DNA of 42,988 nt from a virus (taxonomy: Duplodnaviria; Heunggongvirae; Uroviricota; Caudoviricetes), in the IMG/VR virus record IMGVR_UViG_3300045988_149348. One strand, given 5' to 3'. The position numbers and the translations under genes are program-made. Every line of letters begins with the position of its first letter. Positions within the stretch are counted from its first letter, which is position 1. A model generated the notes under the pieces. That model was given only the letters and a program-made list of their open reading frames with translations. It ran no database searches and was not told where the DNA came from. This document shows positions 11,730 to 42,205 of this stretch, in pieces.

Positions 11730-12070
11730 ATCGGCATTCCTCTGTTAGTATTAACAGTGAGAGTTATTTCCAATACACCAACATTATCTGATACTTCATC
11801 AACAATATAATTTTTACCGTTGATTTTCATTGACTGGTCTTTGACAGGGAGAACAGGAAAATCTTTTCTTGAAACAAATAATATTATTTGCCCCTGATTT
11901 ATTCCCTCTGCAAACTCAGCATATGAGCGTTTATTACGCTCATGAATAAGGTCTGTATCAATAACGGCAAGGATATCCTTGCCGTCTATGTTATATGTAT
12001 CGGCAAACTCTTTTTCATTGAGGAATATTGCAGAAATATCTTGCGCTATAACCTCTTTGAAGGAGTTCAT
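11726..12070 (-). CDS. hypothetical virion protein (possible head-tail connector)
   Basis: 114-aa ORF, coupled overlaps with neighbours. Confidence 0.35.
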   Translation of the reverse strand: MNSFKEVIAQDISAIFLNEKEFADTYNIDGKDILAVIDTDLIHERNKRSYAEFAEGINQGQIILFVSRKDFPVLPVKDQSMKINGKNYIVDEVSDNVGVLEITLTVNTNRGMPI

Positions 12071-23214: not shown

Positions 23215-23290
23215 TGGTGGCCCCTACCGGATTTGAACCGATGACCGTGCGATTATGAGTCGCCTGCTCTAACCACTGAGCTAAGGGGCC
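23215..23290 (-). tRNA. tRNA with CAU anticodon (Met or Ile2/lysidine type)
   Basis: 76-nt cloverleaf folded by hand: 7-bp acceptor stem, GCTC/GAGC D stem, anticodon loop CUCAUAA, T loop TTCAAAT, 3' CCA encoded. The 5' 42 nt match E. coli ileX-type tRNA as recalled. Confidence 0.8.
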
Positions 23291-24401: not shown

Positions 24402-24684
24402 GATTAAACCCTAATGCGTCAACTATCCGCGCCAGATTGCCCCTGAAATACAGAACAACGATGCAGATAATCAGATTTCCAATAACCACCAGCCAGTGGG
24501 ATTCTTGATAAAGACCGAACACATAACGGAAGGGAACATTGGCGTATACAATGACGTAGATATAAGCCAGAAAGGAAACAAATGGACGATGCCTGGAGTC
24601 TTTCCGTCGATAAAGCATCAGCGCCATTACTATTACTGTGCAAAGCACCGCATTAATCAGTGCTGACGGGTCACTGCTTACCAT
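24388..24684 (-). CDS. membrane protein, holin/antiholin-like
   Basis: Multi-pass hydrophobic ~98-aa ORF (from internal Met) between the holin-like gene and endolysin. Confidence 0.4.
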   Translation of the reverse strand: MVSSDPSALINAVLCTVIVMALMLYRRKDSRHRPFVSFLAYIYVIVYANVPFRYVFGLYQESHWLVVIGNLIICIVVLYFRGNLARIVDALGFNHDQR

Positions 24685-29862: not shown

Positions 29863-30195
29863 TCAGATCTCCCGTATCGTGACGGGATAAAGCGCCTCTA
29901 CCTGCTTTTTCTTCATGATGTAGACGTCTGTTCGCACACCTTTAGTGTCGACACAATCAATCGTCCCATCGTCATAAAACACCATGAAATCAAGTTTATA
30001 AACGACACCACCTGGCAGATTAAAAGGCACCTGCATAAGAAACGTCACAACGCGGCCAGCTTTTCTCAGTAGCTTCAGTTCGCAGTAGTAATCAGCCTCT
30101 TTTTTGCTATCAAAAGCGATATCATCGACAACCGTTTTTTTATTGCCGTATTTGCTTTTCCTGGTCGCTGGTTTGCGAAAGCCGGTATATCTCAT
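29863..30195 (-). CDS. DUF1064-like protein (nin-region type)
   Basis: 110 aa; YGNKKT...FDSKKEADYY...YKLDFMVFY pattern as recalled for DUF1064. Confidence 0.5.
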   Translation of the reverse strand: MRYTGFRKPATRKSKYGNKKTVVDDIAFDSKKEADYYCELKLLRKAGRVVTFLMQVPFNLPGGVVYKLDFMVFYDDGTIDCVDTKGVRTDVYIMKKKQVEALYPVTIREI

Positions 30196-30596
30196 TTGGT
30201 ATCCCCTGGTACTTCACCAAGACTAAGATCAAACCCAATTTCGTCTTTAACTGACTGCGGCAACAGCTCCCACGTCTGCGCACACAAAAATTCATCGGTG
30301 CCATAACGCTCAACAAAGCGAGCACAATTACTCAGGGGAGGGTGACGAACGGCAATATGCGGAGGCACGCGCCCACCACCAGGCACAACACCGCGATGAT
30401 GTGGTGCGCACAACCCAAAGCTATGGAAGTGGCAATTCTCATCAACGCTGCCGTAATCAGGATCGTGATGTAGTTCCGTCCACAGCTCTGGATTCTCAAT
30501 TTCACGGCCATCAATAATGCAAGCTATGCAACCCACGTGAGTGAGCACCGCTTGTATATAAAGTTTCTCTTTCTTCGTTGGTGTACGTCCGTTCAT
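30192..30596 (-). CDS. putative zinc-binding HNH-type nuclease (Ref/NinG-like recombination protein)
   Basis: 134 aa; Cys/His cluster GCIACIIDG...LHHD...CHFHSFGLCAPHH. Confidence 0.4.
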   Translation of the reverse strand: MNGRTPTKKEKLYIQAVLTHVGCIACIIDGREIENPELWTELHHDPDYGSVDENCHFHSFGLCAPHHRGVVPGGGRVPPHIAVRHPPLSNCARFVERYGTDEFLCAQTWELLPQSVKDEIGFDLSLGEVPGDTK

Positions 30597-30829: not shown

Positions 30830-31341
30830 TGATGGCCCCCGTCATTTCTGGTGCTTTTCACCGTGCGGCTTCTTAAAAACCTGCCATCACGAACAACAGA
30901 CACTTCTCGTTTACCCAACCTCATTTCACGGCGGTAACATTCAGAAAATGCCTCGTCCGGCATCATATAAATGCGACGCTTCGCCTCCGTATCCAGAAGG
31001 GAACGGCTTGGGGTTACATATAAAAACGACTCATCAATAGGGACAAAACCACGAGCAAGAATTGCTGGCAGAATGCCAGGAAGAACGCAGAAAACAGCTC
31101 CACGATGCAGCAACATCTGGTACTCCATGACCTCCGTTATCCCCGTGACTACTGTTACGGTGTCACGTCTGTTACGGCTGGCAACCAGTCGCTGCACACG
31201 TCCAATTTTCTGATCTACAGATAGATGTTTGCTATCGTTATCAATATGATCGATAACAAATCCTTTAATCGTTTGATCAAGGTAGTGCACCACCTTCGAT
31301 TGAATCTGGTGATTATCACCAAAGAAGGCCAGAATCATCAT
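30826..31341 (-). CDS. hypothetical protein
   Basis: 171-aa ORF in the early operon. Confidence 0.4.
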   Translation of the reverse strand: MMILAFFGDNHQIQSKVVHYLDQTIKGFVIDHIDNDSKHLSVDQKIGRVQRLVASRNRRDTVTVVTGITEVMEYQMLLHRGAVFCVLPGILPAILARGFVPIDESFLYVTPSRSLLDTEAKRRIYMMPDEAFSECYRREMRLGKREVSVVRDGRFLRSRTVKSTRNDGGHQ

Positions 31342-31832
31342 TCCTCAAGCCTCCCGAGTGCTGAACGCCGGGCGTTGCTAATCTCCTTATGAATCAGCTC
31401 GATATCGCTGGAATCTTTATTCTTAAACTCCAGCATGGCAATCGCATCACGAACCTCTGAAACGGTTACGTGTGAGTGTTTCCAGCGAGCAATGAATCGC
31501 GGACCGCGTAGATTGCAACGCTCCGCAGGCATCCCCAGCTCAGAGAAAACCGCTTTCAGCCTTGATAAGCAGTTAACAGGGAGATTCCCTTTGATCTTGT
31601 TCTGCCGAACCGATGTGCCATCGCTACGCTGGCGCTGACGTTCGGCAAAATCTGCCGCCCATTGCTGGACGTTAATCCGGCCTTCCGAATACGCCACCAG
31701 CAGCGTCAGGTTATCCGCACGAGGGAATCTCTCGAAGCGATACCAGGCACCAATCAGTGATGACGTAAAGCCAAACTTTCTGGCAACACCAATTTGGCCT
31801 CCATTTTCGTCAACCCACTCCTGAAAGGTCAT
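31338..31832 (-). CDS. Cro/YdaS-like DNA-binding protein with C-terminal extension
   Basis: 164 aa; N-terminal helix-turn-helix QIGVARKFGFTSSLIGAW; first gene leftward of the divergent operator region; GGAG ribosome-binding site. Confidence 0.55.
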   Translation of the reverse strand: MTFQEWVDENGGQIGVARKFGFTSSLIGAWYRFERFPRADNLTLLVAYSEGRINVQQWAADFAERQRQRSDGTSVRQNKIKGNLPVNCLSRLKAVFSELGMPAERCNLRGPRFIARWKHSHVTVSEVRDAIAMLEFKNKDSSDIELIHKEISNARRSALGRLEE

Positions 31833-31850
31833 TTAACGAACTCCAGTTAA

Positions 31851-31865
31851 ACCACGATATGTGGT
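31851..31865. promoter_or_regulatory. operator, ACCAC-N5-GTGGT family (ACCACGATATGTGGT), Cro-side
   Basis: Perfect 15-bp inverted repeat in the cro leader; imperfect neighbour ACCACATATCGTGAG at 31872..31886 falls in the spacer of a TTGAAA-17-TTTAAT promoter on the minus strand. Confidence 0.6.
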
Positions 31866-31953
31866 ATTAAAACCACATATCGTGAGTTTTTCAATGGGCG
31901 AAACAAAAAATAACCTTCTATTTGTGGTCCACCTCTCGTCTTACCATGTGAAA

Positions 31954-31968
31954 ACCACTAAATGTGGT
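31954..31968. promoter_or_regulatory. operator, ACCAC-N5-GTGGT family (ACCACTAAATGTGGT), repressor-side
   Basis: Perfect inverted repeat just upstream of a TATAAA -10-like hexamer (31973..31978) and the CI-like gene start. Confidence 0.6.
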
Positions 31969-32005
31969 AATGTATAAATAACCCACCATTCACGATTGAT
32001 GAGAC

Positions 32006-32662
32006 ATGAAAAGCAACGACGAGAACATCAAGAAAGAAATAGGTCTGCGCATTCAGACTCTACGGAAACAATCCGGCATGACTGCCGGAGATCTCCAGCA
32101 AGTCACTGGAATAGGCTTAAGCACCTTGCAGAACTATGAGGCCGGATTAAGACAACCATCTATACCTGCCATCAAGAAAATCGCGCACGCCCTGAAAGCA
32201 TCAGCGCCTTATATCGCGTGCTTAACAGATAACCCGTTCCCACCCCAGAATACTAACGCTCCTGTTATTCCTGGGCTTGTAGCTATAAAAAATGACATAG
32301 CATCGCACGCCGGAGAAAAGCCAGTGCTGGCGATAGAACAGGAGATTCTACGAAGCAAGAACATCAACCCATCGTCTCTGTCAGTTCTCCAGAGCAACGA
32401 TGAGTTAATGTCACCAACAATATCCCCTGGCTCCCAAGTCCTGATTAATACAGACGATACAGAGATTCATGAGGGGATCTATGCCCTTGAAGACAGAAAT
32501 GGCCTGGTTGTTTTGAGGCACTGTAGAGTCATACCGGGTGACAATGCTGTTATGCTGTCAACCGAAAGGGATGCTGAAATGAACACTAAGCATCTGAATA
32601 ACGAGGAATTTAAGCGTTATAAAGTTCTTGGCCGCGTAGTTAGTGTTGTCAACTGGTTATGA
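32006..32662 (+). CDS. CI-like repressor (HTH_XRE N-domain + LexA/S24-like C-domain)
   Basis: 218 aa; N-terminal helix-turn-helix (LQQVTGIGLSTLQNYEAG); C-terminal ELMSPTISPGSQVLIN aligns by eye with the S24 GDSMxPxIxxGDxVLVD motif. Confidence 0.7.
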   Translation: MKSNDENIKKEIGLRIQTLRKQSGMTAGDLQQVTGIGLSTLQNYEAGLRQPSIPAIKKIAHALKASAPYIACLTDNPFPPQNTNAPVIPGLVAIKNDIASHAGEKPVLAIEQEILRSKNINPSSLSVLQSNDELMSPTISPGSQVLINTDDTEIHEGIYALEDRNGLVVLRHCRVIPGDNAVMLSTERDAEMNTKHLNNEEFKRYKVLGRVVSVVNWL

Positions 32663-32704: not shown

Positions 32705-32719
32705 ACCACATTTTGTGGT
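32705..32719. promoter_or_regulatory. operator, ACCAC-N5-GTGGT family (ACCACATTTTGTGGT)
   Basis: Perfect inverted repeat between the CI-like gene and 32755..33129, followed by TTGACA. Confidence 0.55.
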
Positions 32720-34254: not shown

Positions 34255-34437
34255 TTGGCCGTCGCGACACAACAAGGGGAATTTGTTATGTCCGAGCAAC
34301 AATATACACGGTTACTGAAAACTCGTCTAACCGACCTCAAACGGCTGCAAGCTGGTCGCTTATTTGCCCTGCTATCCACCAGGCCAGAATGGGTACGTGA
34401 AGCAGTTCTGAAAGGCTTAATGCGCTCCAGCGTTTAA
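34255..34437 (+). CDS. hypothetical small protein
   Basis: 60-aa ORF; last ORF before the hairpin at 34454..34469. Confidence 0.3.
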   Translation: MAVATQQGEFVMSEQQYTRLLKTRLTDLKRLQAGRLFALLSTRPEWVREAVLKGLMRSSV

Positions 34438-34446
34438 ATTCAACCA

Positions 34447-34469
34447 TAAAAAAGGCCCCCGAAGGGGCC
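34447..34469 (-). terminator. rho-independent terminator (minus-strand orientation)
   Basis: GGCCCC-CGAA-GGGGCC hairpin with an A-run on the plus side, giving a U-run on the minus strand after the small peptide ORF. Confidence 0.55.
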
Positions 34470-34475
34470 TAATCG

Positions 34476-34598
34476 CTACTTGCTGCTAATGTTTATCGTC
34501 ACATTCAGAGCGTTATCAGTAATCTTCCAACCCTCCCCATGTGGCGTAAACAAAGCTCCAGTAACAACGATAAAAATACACATGTAGTATTTTTTCAT
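34476..34598 (-). CDS. small hydrophobic peptide (40 aa), candidate membrane peptide
   Basis: MKKYYMCIFIVVTGALF...; AAGGG 8 nt upstream of ATG 34598; own terminator downstream. Low confidence. Confidence 0.3.
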   Translation of the reverse strand: MKKYYMCIFIVVTGALFTPHGEGWKITDNALNVTINISSK

Positions 34599-34976
34599 TG
34601 TGTGGCCCTTACAGGCCGTTTCACGGCATCCCCACCGACGAAAATGACGCGAGAGCAAGCACGCTGTTTGTGCCTGCGTGGTACGGCAAGTGGATAATCC
34701 TTTCCTGAAAGTCGGTGCCCGGTTGCGAATCGGCGAAAAGGCCCCGCGTAATGTTACACCGCAGCCCCTTCATAATGAAGGGATAAAAATGTATTGTTTT
34801 TCATTAGGTTAAATACACACCACAAAAATCACTCGCTTTTGTGCTCTAATAAACCAAATTTATTTGGACAATTTTATTCAGTTGGGTAAGAATATGGTTG
34901 CTGTTTGTGCTTGCGTGGTTGTATTTATACAACAACGTAATGCTGAAAGGACCGCGAATCCGATCAGCACGAAAGA

Positions 34977-35002
34977 ACCGTCCTCAAAAGGACGGTTTTT
35001 TT
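34977..35002 (+). terminator. rho-independent terminator (plus strand)
   Basis: ACCGTCC-TCAAAA-GGACGGT followed by TTTTTT; overlaps the 3' end of the minus-strand gene 34984..35556. Confidence 0.6.
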
Positions 35003-35556
35003 GTTTCTCCCCCTTCCTTCCCAAATGATTCAAATGTTAATGAGAGTGAATCATTTGATATGTTCGATTTAGCGCCGTTATCGACCCAATTTCTGTATGC
35101 TTCATCACAACAGTACCTTACAGCAGTTGGAGTAACAGGGATGCCGCCCCCAAATGAGAATCCCATTGAGCTAATGCTAACTCTTTCGAATGGCCTATTT
35201 CTCAATGCTTCAAACCCCTTGCTATTAAAGTAACGCAGCATCAGAGGTAAAAGGTTATCCTCGTCCTGACTGATTGTTCCAGGGAAAAAGTAGTAACCAT
35301 AACGGTTAAATTCGGGAATAAGAATTTCTACCAATGACATGAAATTCACTGGAGTAATATTAAGGGCTGTGAAAGCACCAAAAAGGGCGTCAACTGTTAA
35401 TACAGACTGCCCGTTCTCTATCTTTGTCCATGCGTTTGGTGTTTTTCCAGCAGCTTGAGCCAGCACTCCTTGATGCACACCTCTTTCTAGCCTAAGTTCT
35501 TTTATGATCATTAGGTGAATTGTTGAAAAACATGAGTTTTTTGACTGTTCAATCAT
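34984..35556 (-). CDS. HTH_XRE-family DNA-binding protein with uncharacterised C-terminal domain
   Basis: 190 aa; helix-turn-helix VLAQAAGKTPNAWTKIENGQSVLTVD; GGGGA ribosome-binding site 6 nt upstream of ATG 35556. Confidence 0.55.
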   Translation of the reverse strand: MIEQSKNSCFSTIHLMIIKELRLERGVHQGVLAQAAGKTPNAWTKIENGQSVLTVDALFGAFTALNITPVNFMSLVEILIPEFNRYGYYFFPGTISQDEDNLLPLMLRYFNSKGFEALRNRPFERVSISSMGFSFGGGIPVTPTAVRYCCDEAYRNWVDNGAKSNISNDSLSLTFESFGKEGGETKKPSF

Positions 35557-35692
35557 TTTTTATCCCCATACTGAATTTTTTCTTGTTCCCGACTTTAACA
35601 AAACCCCACAACTCAGGACTGATTGATTCCTTACAGGAACTATACATTCCCATTTTTAGCATATCAAGAAAATTAAAAGCCCCGCATTCAAA

Positions 35693-35707
35693 CCCACACT
35701 ATGTGGT
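35693..35707. promoter_or_regulatory. operator, ACCAC-N5-GTGGT family (CCCACACTATGTGGT, one mismatch)
   Basis: Immediately upstream of an extended -10-like TGTTAAAAT (35711..35719) that precedes the candidate small-RNA region. Confidence 0.5.
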
Positions 35708-35737
35708 TTAGTCTGTTAAAATCCCTCTGTATTGACA

Positions 35738-35839
35738 TAAATGCGCCATTGGTGGACACTTTCCGAGCCGTAGCAAAATCTACGGTCGGGATTGGAACCC
35801 CGTAGACACAATGGCGCATACCGCGTTAGCGGTTTTTTT
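35738..35839 (+). ncRNA. candidate c4-like antisense regulatory RNA with intrinsic terminator
   Basis: Structured ~100-nt region: GCGCCATTG...CAATGGCGC long-range stem, CCGTAG/CTACGG inner stem, then ACCGC-GTTA-GCGGT plus UUUUUUU terminator (35820..35839). 35789..35817 is complementary in two blocks (CATTGTGTC, GTTCCAA) to 35917..35941 in the downstream leader. Confidence 0.5.
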
Positions 35840-36005
35840 ATGCGTAAAGCACTGCTACACCCAAATTATGGTGGGGCGTGCGGGGGAGTCGTAAGACTCG
35901 CCGGTTCGTCATTGTGTCCGGTAGTTCCAACCCTGCACGTCTCACCACCCAATGATTGGAACCTGACGGTGGTGAGTATCCTTAACCTTTAAGGGAATCA
36001 TCACA

Positions 36006-36197
36006 ATGACAAACCTACCCCATGACTATTACGTCAACCTCGTAAAGATCCTTCTCAAGAAAGCCTCATACGCCGATAAAGTCCGCCTGGCTGAAATCAT
36101 CGAGCGCGAAGCTATGCGCATCGCCAGCAACGATAACGCTGTTTCTGACGCAAAAATCTCCCTCGTAACCAAAGTAGTTATGGGAGGTGCAAAATGA
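36006..36197 (+). CDS. icd-like small ORF, translationally coupled to the antirepressor gene
   Basis: 63-aa ORF whose TGA stop overlaps the ATG of the next gene (ATGA); AAGGG ribosome-binding site lies in a CCTTAA/TTAAGG hairpin. Confidence 0.5.
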   Translation: MTNLPHDYYVNLVKILLKKASYADKVRLAEIIEREAMRIASNDNAVSDAKISLVTKVVMGGAK

Positions 36198-37375
36198 AAA
36201 CGCTTCCGATCGTTAACACCCTACAGCCTATCCTGCATAACCAGATCCCCGTTATCACTACTGAACTACTGGCAAAGCTATACGGCACAGACGTTGATAA
36301 CATCAAAAAAAATTACTCACGTAACGCAACCCGCTTTATTGAAGGAAAGCATTTTTTCAAAGTGGCTGGCGATGAGTTAAAAACTTTGCGAGTGACTTTA
36401 AGTCACTCACAAAATTTGCGACTAGTTTTAAACGAGTCACAAAATGAAGTGCAAATTTCCCCCAAGACTCGCTCTCTCATCCTCTGGACAGAACGCGGGG
36501 CTGCACGTCATGCCAAAATGCTTGAAACTAACCAAGCGTGGGATGTATTCGAACGGCTGGAAGACTGCTATTTCAGCCAGAACGCGCAAACGGCCGCGAC
36601 CGTAACCGTCTCGCCAAACAATGCTCGTGAGGTTGTCGATACGCTCAACGCCAAACCGATGTTTTACATTAAAGTGTGCAACAACGAGCCACTCACAACC
36701 TCAGCCGATGTTGCCCAGGCATTCAGCACCACAAACAATTCCATCGTTATGGCCATCGATGCGCTACGCATTCCTCGCACGGCTGCGGCGCGTCACTTCT
36801 TTAAAGAGCAACGACCGTTGGAAGGAAGCGACCGCGAAATAACAATCTATCGCATGACAAAAGACGGATTTACCTTGCTCATGGAGAGCATCGACGGTCC
36901 AGGCGTGAAAGATATCAAGCTGGCCTACATTGAAGCCTTTAACGCTATCAGCAGCGTGTTAAAAACACAGTACGAGCGTGATCTGGCTAAACGACTGTAC
37001 CAGGAAAAAACGATTATCCGCGCGGCAACAGAGCATAATCGGCTATTAACGGAACCGAACTACAGGAAGGAACTAATCAAGGAGTTTGACAAGGCAACAG
37101 GGAAAACCAAAGCGGCGCTAAATCTGCCAGCAATGACTCAGGAAAATGTGATATCAGCCTTACTTCTTGATCTGCTCAGAAACGCCAGAGCACTTATCAG
37201 CTTTGACGAAAACCTGAATCCTCAGCTCAAGCTACTACCACCGACAGGCAAAGTAGTCGACCAGGCTGATCACAACAGCATACTCAGCGTACTGGATGCA
37301 AACCTGCCAGCCAGGACACTACAGGATCTGATAAAAACATGTGCTGATAAGCTGGCACAGAAAAGCAGACCATAA
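36194..37375 (+). CDS. antirepressor-like protein (ORF6N/KilA-N-like N-domain + Rha-like domain)
   Basis: 393 aa; N-terminal ITTELLAKLYGTDVDNIKKNYSRNATRF (ORF6N-like) and central PLTTSADVAQAFSTTNNSIVMAIDAL (Rha-like), as recalled; GGGAGG ribosome-binding site. Confidence 0.6.
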   Translation: MKTLPIVNTLQPILHNQIPVITTELLAKLYGTDVDNIKKNYSRNATRFIEGKHFFKVAGDELKTLRVTLSHSQNLRLVLNESQNEVQISPKTRSLILWTERGAARHAKMLETNQAWDVFERLEDCYFSQNAQTAATVTVSPNNAREVVDTLNAKPMFYIKVCNNEPLTTSADVAQAFSTTNNSIVMAIDALRIPRTAAARHFFKEQRPLEGSDREITIYRMTKDGFTLLMESIDGPGVKDIKLAYIEAFNAISSVLKTQYERDLAKRLYQEKTIIRAATEHNRLLTEPNYRKELIKEFDKATGKTKAALNLPAMTQENVISALLLDLLRNARALISFDENLNPQLKLLPPTGKVVDQADHNSILSVLDANLPARTLQDLIKTCADKLAQKSRP

Positions 37376-37377
37376 CT

Positions 37378-37399
37378 ACAAGGGGCTACGGCCCCTTAC
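37378..37399 (+). terminator. rho-independent terminator after the antirepressor gene
   Basis: AAGGGGC-TAC-GGCCCCTT hairpin followed by a T-rich tract. Confidence 0.55.
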
Positions 37400-38112
37400 T
37401 CTTTTCTCTCTTATCAACGCCAGAGACTTTCTGAAAATCCTTTCGAATAGCGTCAGCATCACGCGCCAAGCCCATACTGGAATGCGTCGCCATATGACGA
37501 AAATGATCAACTGCCGGAAACAAAGAAATAATGGACCCAATAGCTTGCAGCAAACTCGCTTTTCTACGCATCATAATTCCACCATAACCGATAACCACCC
37601 TTCAGACACAACCCCCCCTCCCCCCATACAGGGTGCCCTTTACCGGAGTTCCGGCCCCTTCTCAAAAGCATCAAAAAAAGCTCGAGATCGAGTACCGGAA
37701 CTCATGCCACCAGATAGCTCCACATCGTTTCCAATGCTTCGCCGCCGTGTGCGCCCTGTGGCCCACAATCATGCCATTGGTCGTCTGATATACCTTCTTC
37801 TGCTCATAGAGCACAGGCGAGTTGTCGCACTCCTGCCTTTCTCAGACTCGACTTAGTTTAGATCGCTGTTCCTGGCTTGCGTCAGCACACTTTCCCCTTG
37901 TACGCATACCCGCGCGCCACTTCGCCCAAAAACACCGAACCCAACGAAGTGGCAAAGACAACGACGCGAGCGTGAGTCTGAAATGGGCACCAGTAAAAAA
38001 GGGGTTGCAGGCGCAAAAAGATTTGATTATCTTTAGACGCAAGAAAGCCGCCCCAATCAAGAGGTGTCTTTTTAAATCCAGCCTACCAAGCAAGATTTAA
38101 ATTTCAGACTGA

Positions 38113-38520: not shown

Positions 38521-38901
38521 TTACTTAACGAGGAATAAAAATGGTTTATTGTTCGGCGGTGTAATCGGGGCTGGCTCGCTTTTGCTCATGCGGTCAGTGT
38601 ACCAGGCCAGCTCCTTGTCAAAGTAAGCCTGATTAAAATAGGCCATGAATGTGGTTTCAAATCCATAACGACCGCTAATACGCAGCATCTGATTGCCGTT
38701 CTCTGTTTCCAGATATACCAGGGCACGCTCCTGATTCTCCTTCAGCCAGGTTAAAGCCTCATCGCACGAGGACACACGATACTCATCATCGTAGCCGTCA
38801 TCGATGCGGCTTGAAGAAGAACGGCAAATCACGCCAACAGAACCAGCCAGGATAGTTTGAATTTTAAGGAAAGCGTTTTTGCGGATTTTAATCATGCTCA
38901 T
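38521..38901 (-). CDS. hypothetical protein driven by copy B of the duplicated leader
   Basis: 126-aa ORF; 5' region identical to that of 28245..29312 up to the ribosome-binding site. Confidence 0.45.
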   Translation of the reverse strand: MSMIKIRKNAFLKIQTILAGSVGVICRSSSSRIDDGYDDEYRVSSCDEALTWLKENQERALVYLETENGNQMLRISGRYGFETTFMAYFNQAYFDKELAWYTDRMSKSEPAPITPPNNKPFLFLVK

Positions 38902-38908
38902 CGGGTTA

Positions 38909-39021
38909 TCTCCGGTTTAACCAGGGCGGGTATCGCTCGGTTTCGGGTATAACCATAGGAAATTTTTTCCCACCTGTAAAGAACCTTTTTATATAAATCT
39001 ATAATTATATAACTCTATGAG
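38909..39021 (-). promoter_or_regulatory. duplicated ~100-bp promoter/leader module, copy B
   Basis: Near-identical to 29319..29420, including the TATAAATCTATAATTATATA 20-mer. Confidence 0.55.
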
Positions 39022-39065
39022 CACAAAAAAGCCCCTTTGCAACAGGGGCTTATCATTCGTTCTGA

Positions 39066-39365
39066 TCAGATGTTAAACGCTATTCGTTTTCCTGTGGGAA
39101 GCTCAACATCCAGGCTTAATTTGCCTCCCATAGCTTCAACGTAACGCTTTAATGTCGCCAGCTTTAAATCATTTCCGCGCTGCTCCAGCTTTGTTACTGC
39201 TGGCTGGCTTATACCCATCGCCTCAGCAACCTGTTTTTGTGATAACTGGAGTTCTTCACGCATCATCTGCAAGCCGACCTCAAGAATCATCTCATCTGCC
39301 ATTTCTTTAATTCGCGCCTGGCTTTCAGGTGAACGGCTGGCAATCACCTCATCTAATGTTCTCAT
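39066..39365 (-). CDS. HigA-like antitoxin (HTH_XRE)
   Basis: 99 aa; helix-turn-helix LSQKQVAEAMGISQPAVTKLEQ; start overlaps the stop of the upstream toxin-like gene. Confidence 0.6.
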   Translation of the reverse strand: MRTLDEVIASRSPESQARIKEMADEMILEVGLQMMREELQLSQKQVAEAMGISQPAVTKLEQRGNDLKLATLKRYVEAMGGKLSLDVELPTGKRIAFNI

Positions 39366-39718
39366 TACTTGCTCTCCAGTGTGTTCAGATGTGCTGCAAA
39401 CTCATCCTCAGCTATACGCACCAGTTTTTTATAAAACCGCTTATCGTTACTTTTGTCTCCTGCACAAAGAACGATAGCCCGGCGAATCGGATCGAACGCA
39501 TAAAAGGCTCTTATCGGACGGCCAGAAAACTGAACGCGAAGCTCTTTCATATTTTTGTACCGAGAACCTTTTACGGTATCGGCATATGGCCTGGGTAACT
39601 CAGGTCCGTAAACCTGTAGATTTTTCAAATCAGCCAAAACCTTTTCCTGAAGAGCGTCTTCTTGCTCATTTAGCCAGTCGTCAAATCGCTGGCTAAAAAG
39701 TACCGTCCACATGATCAA
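39365..39718 (-). CDS. HigB/RelE-family (Gp49-like) addiction-module toxin
   Basis: 117 aa; W.V.F...F..WL...GS....MKELR...YRA.Y......IVL..G.K pattern as recalled for the killer-protein family; toxin-first order. Confidence 0.6.
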   Translation of the reverse strand: MIMWTVLFSQRFDDWLNEQEDALQEKVLADLKNLQVYGPELPRPYADTVKGSRYKNMKELRVQFSGRPIRAFYAFDPIRRAIVLCAGDKSNDKRFYKKLVRIAEDEFAAHLNTLESK

Positions 39719-42190: not shown

Positions 42191-42205
42191 ACCACGTTAC
42201 GTGGT
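42191..42205. promoter_or_regulatory. operator, ACCAC-N5-GTGGT family (ACCACGTTACGTGGT), upstream of repA
   Basis: Perfect 15-bp inverted repeat in the spacer of a putative minus-strand promoter with -10 TATGAT. Confidence 0.55.

Follow-up and report, generated by a model that had tools for sequence, protein, structure and literature searches.

The stretch of DNA analysed here (the window; 42,988 nucleotides, IMG/VR record IMGVR_UViG_3300045988_149348) represents most of a circular phage-plasmid of about 48 kb with a P2-like contractile tail, an IncFII-type RepA and ParA. An open reading frame (ORF) of the plus strand, confirmed exactly at 32006–32662, encodes a 218-residue protein with the two-domain layout of a CI-like repressor: an N-terminal helix-turn-helix (HTH) domain and a C-terminal domain of the S24/LexA type, in which both catalytic residues are replaced. 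The gene and its parts, in window coordinates, are as follows.

32006–32662, plus strand: gene of the predicted CI-like immunity repressor, 218 amino acids.
32051–32212, plus strand: HTH_3 DNA-binding domain, residues 16–69 (Pfam E-value 4.5e-11; AlphaFold2 (AF2) predicted local distance difference test score (pLDDT) >90).
32231–32323, plus strand: variable linker, or vestigial cleavage-site region, residues 76–106 (defined from the family alignment, the nonsynonymous differences per site (pN) and pLDDT).
32324–32659, plus strand: S24/LexA-like C-terminal domain lacking the catalytic dyad, residues 107–218.
32405–32407, plus strand: codon TTA for L134, at the position of the S24 serine nucleophile (LexA S119), in three independent alignments.
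32513–32518, plus strand: codons TTG AGG for L170 and R171, at the position of the general-base lysine (LexA K156), in two registers.

Peptidase_S24 (PF00717) matches the protein below threshold (residues 113–212, 18.4 bits against a gathering threshold (GA) of 23.3), and in PHROGs it corresponds over its full length to phrog_4, ‘transcriptional repressor’ (9.6e-27). Together with the HTH_3 match, these assignments identify the product as a CI-like repressor, as the first-pass annotation, made by a model from the letters of the window, had called it. The HTH is structurally similar to the N-terminal domains of P22 C2, the 434 repressor and SinR, and its recognition region, T34–G47, is invariant in the family alignment. 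The narrow repressor family is made up of 13 clusters at 90% identity, with a lowest identity of 60%; conservation counts given below refer to a 12-member alignment of it. The same protein, 100% identical, occurs in the Yersinia phages vB_YpM_39/41/44, and 58 plasmids carry the gene at a DNA identity of 95% or more.

The C-terminal domain retains the S24 motifs M-x-P-T-I, G-x-Y, R-x-x-R and G-R-V. The segment that corresponds to the serine motif reads D132-E133-L134-M135-S136-P137-T138-I139-S140-P141-G142 (nucleotides 32399–32431). In an hmmalign alignment of 162 relatives the L134 column is Ser in 120, within G-D-S-M-x-P-T-I, and in an hmmalign alignment to the superfamily profile LexA S119, UmuD S60 and lambda CI S149 all fall on L134 (for the Escherichia coli LexA, UmuD and lambda CI sequences, lengths and catalytic positions were checked by index). 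With hhalign, the family C-domain profile aligned to 40 dyad-intact S24 proteins, LexA, UmuD and lambda CI among them, with a probability of 99.6% and an E-value of 1.3e-24, again placing the Ser at L134. The Ser-to-Leu replacement that the first-pass annotation had read in DELM-SPTISPG is thus upheld by two hmmalign runs and one hhalign run that put L134 on the S24 nucleophile, and by the invariance of L134 in the family.

The lysine of the dyad falls in the segment L170-R171-H172-C173 (nucleotides 32513–32524). It coincides with L170 in hhalign, and likewise in a gap-free alignment with the nearest intact relatives, whose K-R-x-x-R corresponds to L-R-H-C-R of the family; this register leaves R171 and R174 as ancestral arginines. 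The hmmalign alignment, in which the preceding hairpin gains an insertion of one residue, sets the Lys on R171. The equivalent of the catalytic Lys is probably L170, in preference to R171, and whichever register is taken the window repressor has no Lys at positions 168–176. The earlier reading of L-R-H-C at this place therefore holds in that the Lys is substituted, its register being probably one residue off. A dyad situated elsewhere, the outcome named at that stage as contradicting the reading, did not emerge from proper alignment: no Lys is invariant in residues 100–218 of the 12-member family (at K116 the window repressor has Arg), so the Ser/Lys dyad has not been relocated within the domain. 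Residues D132, L134, M135, P137, T138, I139, R171, H172, C173 and R174 are invariant in the family. Because L134, L170 (Ile in one member) and R171-H172-C173-R174 are kept among members only 60–66% identical, whose synonymous sites are saturated, the substitutions are not a matter of chance. The linker of the window repressor contains A102-G103 (nucleotides 32309–32314); Ala-Gly is found there in 4 of the 12 family members, and the remainder have SG, G or D.

Structure prediction by AF2 from the 12 close family members alone gave a C-domain pLDDT of 56 and was replaced by a prediction from a deeper, 106-sequence alignment, in which the C-domain reached 91.8 and the lowest values were those of the linker. 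The C-domain is predicted to adopt a β-fold of the LexA/UmuD type, and Foldseek matched it to 186 CI, a lambda–186 hybrid, LexA, lambda CI and UmuD'. The family C-domain profile alone found no sequence in the PDB, and the superfamily profile built from the 106 sequences matched UmuD' at an E-value of 5e-9. On these profile and model comparisons the domain is a homologue of the S24 domain of LexA, lambda CI and UmuD that retains the S24 fold and lacks the S24 catalytic residues.

Selection on the domains was assessed by comparing the repressor genes of the window and of three family loci (L004, L006 and L007). Synonymous differences per site (pS) among the four genes are 0.53–0.78, and synonymous sites are saturated. 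The HTH domain has a pN of 0.07–0.12 and a ratio of nonsynonymous to synonymous substitution rates (dN/dS) of about 0.04–0.07, and the C-domain has a pN of 0.14–0.28 and a dN/dS of 0.10–0.23; in the linker (residues 76–106) pN is the highest in the gene, 0.32–0.48, and gives no reliable dN/dS. By these measures the C-domain is kept by purifying selection, and the least constrained part of the protein is the linker, which matches the cleavage-site region. A free linker beside a constrained C-domain is the pattern expected if cleavage were given up and the domain kept for another role.

Changes of the S119A/K156A type abolish the cleavage of LexA, and since both corresponding positions are substituted in the window repressor, it is expected not to self-cleave. 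Mutants of this type are the crystallised forms in several of the PDB matches. The repressor almost certainly cannot self-cleave after DNA damage, as judged from its sequence, and the earlier proposal that it is not RecA-cleavable is what would be expected from the two substitutions. The C-domain is probably a maintained pseudo-protease with a role in oligomerisation or interaction; we infer that selection keeps it so that the repressor can dimerise, or oligomerise cooperatively across several operators, and that it may also serve as a docking surface.

The repressor gene is divergent from a long early operon, and the 173-bp switch region between them (31833–32005) holds three palindromic sites; a divergent early operon with repeated palindromes in between is the arrangement of a lambda CI-type switch. 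The palindrome, ACCAC-N5-GTGGT, has 8 matches at no more than one mismatch in the window, against 0.62 expected. The features of the switch and the further sites are the following; the palindromes carry no strand.

31338–31832, minus strand: first gene of the divergent early (lytic) operon, 164 amino acids, phrog_7452, syntenic in all family loci.
31851–31865: putative operator ACCACGATATGTGGT, perfect, next to the divergent early gene and paired with the site at 31871–31885.
31871–31885: putative operator ACCACATATCGTGAG, two mismatches, adjoining the site at 31851–31865.
31954–31968: putative operator ACCACTAAATGTGGT, perfect, about 40 bp upstream of the repressor start codon.
32705–32719: putative operator ACCACATTTTGTGGT, perfect, 43 bp past the repressor stop codon and upstream of a 124-codon ORF and the parA operon.
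42191–42205: putative operator ACCACGTTACGTGGT, perfect, upstream of repA.
35693–35707: operator-like palindrome CCCACACTATGTGGT, one mismatch, between the divergent promoters of a 190-residue HTH protein (HTH-190) and of the isrK/C4 RNAs described below.

The paired switch sites of the 31851/31871 type and the other site positions recur in the family loci L004–L007. The site near the repressor start makes autoregulation probable. The site upstream of repA recurs as a perfect copy in the close E. coli relative L001 (at 27623) and in three more distant family elements, L004 (19375), L005 (17788) and L006 (16949). By analogy with N15 CB, it suggests that the prophage repressor may also control plasmid replication, or may loop to the switch region. 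The presence of several separated operators would fit a need for C-domain cooperativity, on the model of lambda and 186 CI. The palindrome at 35693–35707 is centred at about −67 from the 5′ end of isrK, and its functional status is uncertain; it is kept in L001 and L002, a similar site is present in L006 and none in L004. From this layout, 32006–32662 is predicted to encode the immunity repressor that pairs with the ACCAC-N5-GTGGT sites, repression and immunity themselves being part of the prediction.

Some 3 kb downstream of the repressor gene lies a set of features on the plus strand that ends in an antirepressor gene.

35767–35839, plus strand: isrK-like leader RNA with a terminator and a1/b1-type decoy sites for C4 (Rfam RF01394, 67.7 bits against a GA of 50).
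35864–35952, plus strand: C4 antisense RNA (Rfam RF01695, 77.8 bits against a GA of 45).
36006–36197, plus strand: orf63, 63 codons, coupled to the antirepressor gene (phrog_7886; analogous to P1 icd and Gifsy-1 orf45).
36194–37375, plus strand: antirepressor (Ant) homologue of 393 amino acids with ORF6N and Rha domains (Pfam ORF6N 1.7e-20, Phage_pRha 4.1e-12).

Among PHROGs, the 393-residue protein falls into anti-repressor families, with values down to 3.7e-60. Over its N-terminal 163 amino acids it shares 50% identity with the Gifsy-1 region, and its N-terminus is 65–70% identical to antirepressors of Shiga toxin (Stx) phages. The stop codon of orf63 overlaps the start of ant in an ATGA at 36194–36197. 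Pairing by C4 was sought by an exact k-mer complementarity search. The C4 loop at 35908–35916 is exactly complementary, over 9 nt, to 36002–36010, which covers the orf63 ATG at 36006; the segment 35924–35930 is complementary both to 35956–35962 and to the isrK decoy 35792–35798, and the segment 35910–35918 to the isrK decoy 35805–35813. These complementarities reproduce the a1b1/a'b'/a2b2 scheme of P1 immI. RNAduplex energies of C4 against the flanks, with a z-score of about −2, were uninformative. The antirepressor module assigned to 36006–37375 by the first-pass annotation is borne out by the ORF6N and Rha domains, the PHROG families, isrK and C4, and the ATGA coupling. By its composition, 35767–37375 is a genuine antirepressor module of the P1 immI or Gifsy-1 isrK type, predicted to be RNA-gated.

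The module is retained by all 58 plasmids that carry the window repressor allele. The isrK and C4 pair is also present in L003, L004 and L006, with RF03163 (c4-a1b1) in L003, and isrK and/or C4 occurs at the same locus in five of six family elements, including the distant L003. Gene turnover has a hot spot at this locus, which separates parAB from a small, conserved HTH gene and spans 34400–38100 in the window and 12289–14734 in L004, 12226–13780 in L005, 10755–13671 in L006 and 12212–14259 in L007. An Ash-family ORF sometimes stands beside a Rha payload, and L007 has unrelated minus-strand genes instead. The HTH-190 gene itself (34984–35556, minus strand; HTH_3) is divergent from the isrK/C4/ant promoter and is present in the window and in vB_YpM_41. 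The gene is deleted in the related plasmid NZ_CP024865, which precisely lacks 35009–35689 and in which homology resumes at 35690, at the palindrome 35693–35707. It is possible that HTH-190 is a dedicated regulator of the antirepressor operon.

Relatives of the C-domain were collected more widely by searching 1.84 billion representatives with a 119-residue C-terminal profile, which yielded 527 at an E-value of at most 1e-3. Among the best matches, comprising 148 relatives from outside the family, 102 have both Ser and Lys and 21 lack both. The dyad-less relatives are over-represented among the closest ones, and share D-x-x-[ML] ... h-R-[W/F/H]-x-R and a C-terminal Trp. Those that could be placed have the same synteny, namely a divergent early operon, cI, a small ORF, parA and a further small ORF, often on contigs of 36–50 kb; the placed dyad-less proteins, all uncharacterised, are P0019 in L003, P0034 of Serratia in L008, P0165 in L010 and P0045 of Pseudoalteromonas, the last of which adjoins a Rep3 gene. 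Hosts of the cI-orf-parA synteny include E. coli, Citrobacter, Klebsiella, Yokenella, Salmonella and Serratia, and the lineage probably extends to Enterovibrio, Pseudoalteromonas and Motilimonas. The distribution suggests that the dyad was lost long ago in a phage-plasmid lineage.

The explanation that we favour, with a probability of roughly 0.7, combines an immunity repressor whose S24 domain is dead, a C-domain maintained as a pseudo-protease and non-autoproteolytic derepression for which the antirepressor module is the best candidate. The repressor would be incapable of RecA-stimulated or spontaneous self-cleavage, and since it is expected to be non-cleavable, derepression would have to be non-autoproteolytic. 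The best candidate for this step would be the isrK/C4/orf63/ant module 3 kb downstream. In the proposed mechanism, pairing of C4 over the orf63 start codon would normally keep orf63 translation off, and the ORF6N and Rha antirepressor, as the candidate effector, would inactivate the window repressor. Non-cleavability is strongly inferred from the substituted residues, and a dependence of induction on the antirepressor module is plausible from the layout of the locus.

Several observations weigh against this explanation. The lysine register shifts by one residue between methods (L170 versus R171). The payload in L004, L005 and L006 consists of Rha-only proteins of 138–259 amino acids, as opposed to the ORF6N and Rha protein of the window, and no module was found in L007 or, within the flanks read, in the more distant dyad-less loci L008–L010. 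Ant is 87.8% identical in the phages whose repressor is 100% identical, which disfavours tight co-evolution of the two proteins. No LexA box (CTGT-N8-ACAG) lies near the module (35557–36005) even at one mismatch, and none is found in the regulatory regions of the window or of the family loci; the module thus has no evident link to the SOS response, and a link to DNA damage is unsupported. The loss of the neighbouring HTH-190 gene from NZ_CP024865 also speaks against a simple pathway from SOS through Ant to the repressor. Over the window as a whole there is one perfect LexA box, at 11742 inside a structural (virion) gene (0.41 expected), and with one mismatch 14 matches against 12.3 expected.

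The alternative that survives best, and that we nevertheless regard as unlikely, accepts a non-cleavable repressor and denies that the isrK/C4/ant module is its inducer. The module would then be an anti-immunity or inter-phage cassette, like P1 immI or the cross-talk antirepressors of the Salmonella FsoA type, and derepression would come about through turnover by a host protease, through copy number or dilution, through a Cro-like first early gene, or only spontaneously. Some antirepressors are known to act on repressors other than their cognate ones (PMC3121763), and the N-terminus of Ant is common to Stx and Gifsy phages whose repressors are unrelated. The position of the module in a variable accessory region, where the payload differs or is missing beside the same type of repressor, and its lack of a LexA box point the same way. 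Against these stand the retention of the module with this repressor allele in 58 of 58 plasmids and the recurrence of isrK and/or C4 at the same locus in five of six family elements, L003 included. No other candidate inducer was found; in particular, the annotation of the homologous plasmid NZ_CP024865 lists no protease of the ImmA/IrrE type, a statement that covers its annotation and not a scan of every ORF.

It is highly improbable that the repressor is still a protease which uses non-canonical residues (the invariant His172/Cys173 or another Ser or Thr) and cleaves on a signal from RecA or another source. R171-H172-C173-R174 is invariant in the family and extends to the 30%-identical P0019, and the loop equivalent to the cleavage-site region carries the Ala-Gly pair A102-G103 in the window repressor; but Ala-Gly is missing in 8 of the 12 family members, neighbouring residues of a β-strand such as 172 and 173 would face opposite sides, and S185 aligns in hhalign with the structural Ser of the S-D-N motif rather than with the active site. 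Across the wider clade without the dyad, W, F or H stands at position 172 and A, I, G, M or C at position 173, that is, aromatic and small packing residues rather than a conserved His-Cys pair, and a catalytic centre formed by H172 and C173 was rejected on this ground. We know of no S24-fold protease with a Cys/His mechanism, which counts further against this possibility. Cleavage in trans at A102-G103 by a host S24 protease was considered separately and rejected, the site not being conserved. The idea that the ORF is an accessory regulator of the XRE family, for partition or replication for instance, that merely resembles CI, can be dismissed as very improbable: the ORF does lie directly upstream of a small ORF and parA, a putative operator precedes repA and the NCBI name of the protein is only ‘helix-turn-helix domain-containing protein’, but a long divergent early operon with three palindromes in a 173-bp intergenic region is the classical layout of a switch, the match to the PHROG repressor family covers the full length, and the N15 prophage repressor controls both lytic genes and replication.

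A broader evolutionary scenario can be put forward tentatively, as possible though on balance doubtful. A lineage of gammaproteobacterial phage-plasmids of about 40–50 kb may have made its S24 domain non-catalytic once and early, uncoupling the switch from RecA/LexA, and its induction may be governed by an RNA-gated (isrK/C4) antirepressor that answers a non-SOS signal. The substitutions of such a single loss, equally tentative as part of the same scenario, would be Ser to Leu or Ala and Lys to a hydrophobic residue; an aromatic residue would have come to fill the strand of the former active site.

A 2-kb region around the repressor gene is at least 95% identical in 58 plasmids of PLSDB (57 from E. 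coli and 1 from Klebsiella), all non-mobilisable, and 99.2% identical in the Yersinia phages vB_YpM_39/41/44. The annotation of the relative NZ_CP024865 includes P2-like tail and baseplate genes, an IncFII-type RepA, ParA and HigBA, together with a long early operon, divergent from the repressor gene, that encodes a Ref-like nuclease, DUF1064 and DUF3560 proteins, a methylase, holins and a lysin. Coordinate mapping places only tail-fibre and baseplate genes in the 5.5 kb of the element outside the window. The common quality-control strain E. coli ATCC 25922 carries the element too, as its 48,488-bp plasmid NZ_CP009073.1, for which the match extends at least over the ant module (94.6% identity); the induction study published on this strain covered chromosomal prophages only. 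The element is not among the ten curated types of phage-plasmid, and a literature search for it, for its phages and for the repressor by protein accession found no publication.

Further features were recognised in the window. A full-length ryfA-like RNA lies at 34448–34746 on the minus strand (Rfam RF00126, 136.6 bits, E-value 5e-35), between the parAB-like and HTH-190 genes; ryfA loci code for a small, toxic peptide paired with an antisense partner, and the one in the window may be a type I toxin–antitoxin, or plasmid-addiction, cassette. A toxin of the RelE/ParE family (HigB-like) and an HTH antitoxin, mapped from positions 24500–25146 of L001, are situated at about 38797–39443; the pair is kept in the family loci as Gp49 and HTH_37 and presumably forms a plasmid-maintenance module. 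A tRNA gene at 23218–23290 on the minus strand (Rfam, 67 bits), given as tRNA-Met in the annotation of vB_YpM_41, occurs at the same place in L004 and L005. The early operon contains a Ref homologue at 30192–30596 on the minus strand, named ‘Ref family recombination enhancement nuclease’, or Pfam RecA_dep_nuc, in relatives. It is a P1-like trait on a P2-tailed element, and would set a RecA-dependent activity beside a repressor that no longer senses RecA.

The plasmid prophage is common in E. coli, with 58 PLSDB plasmids and the reference strain ATCC 25922 among its carriers, and it yields infectious phages on Yersinia pestis. If the repressor indeed does not sense RecA and the antirepressor is not controlled by LexA, responses to mitomycin C or fluoroquinolones would not predict mobilisation of the element. 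The repressor would also provide a clean natural S24 pseudo-protease that is still recognisable by sequence, useful for asking what roles LexA-like domains have besides cleavage, such as oligomerisation or antirepressor docking.

In P1, a non-cleavable repressor is paired with an antirepressor. Repressors that are inactivated by antirepressors and not by cleavage are also described for 186 (Tum), N15 (AntC) and the Gifsy phages (PMC3121763, PMC8044961), and the principle is already well established. The two-domain architecture and C-domain fold of the window repressor are homologous to those of lambda CI, P22 C2, 434 CI, LexA and UmuD (MEROPS S24), from which it differs by the Ser-to-Leu and Lys-to-Leu replacements, the unconserved Ala-Gly and the sub-threshold Pfam score. 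The CI protein of 186, a Foldseek match, provides an earlier structural case of a LexA-like fold at work without cleavage. To our knowledge no similarity to S24 proteins is detectable in the sequence of 186 CI, whereas the window repressor is a clear S24 homologue by hhalign. Tum is a small protein under LexA control, whereas the antirepressor of the window is an RNA-controlled protein of the ORF6N/Rha type without a LexA box.

Both P1 and the window element are plasmid prophages, and P1 immI (c4-icd-ant) has the same layout as the module described here, with a C4 RNA that has decoy and target sites, a small ORF coupled to ant and pairing over the start of the small ORF; a Ref-like RecA-dependent nuclease is likewise common to P1 and the early operon of the window element. 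The P1 repressor is C1, which is not a protein of the HTH_3/S24 type. P1 is also larger (94 kb against 48 kb), and the window element differs in its P2-like virion module; its antirepressor carries ORF6N and Rha domains. With Gifsy-1, for which the isrK-orf45-anrP mechanism has been described (PMC4825925), the window element shares an isrK leader, a short coupled ORF with an ATGA overlap and an AnrP-like antirepressor; the target of AnrP is the repressor of the antQ operon. The Gifsy repressors GfoR and GtgR are inactivated uncleaved by antirepressors, are about 136 amino acids long and have no C-terminal domain (PMC3121763), in contrast to the full but dead S24 domain of the window repressor. 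The inducing Gifsy antirepressors (GfoA and others) are controlled by LexA, whereas the module of the window has no LexA box.

N15 is a phage-plasmid whose lambdoid-type repressor, CB, is not an SOS sensor, a likeness drawn from its description. N15 has a repressor site near repA, and the window element likewise has a repressor-type palindrome near its repA. An RNA-controlled antirepressor locus, as in the window element, is reportedly represented in N15 by immA (CA RNA-antA) (ref. 10 of PMC7969092; Mardanov and Ravin 2007, as cited in PMC8044961 and PMC3121763). N15 differs from the window element in its induction by the LexA-controlled AntC, its linear form and its siphovirus tail. What sets the window element apart from these systems is the combination of a recognisable S24 sequence in which Leu occupies both catalytic positions with an antirepressor gated by C4/isrK and not by LexA, on a P2-tailed plasmid prophage.

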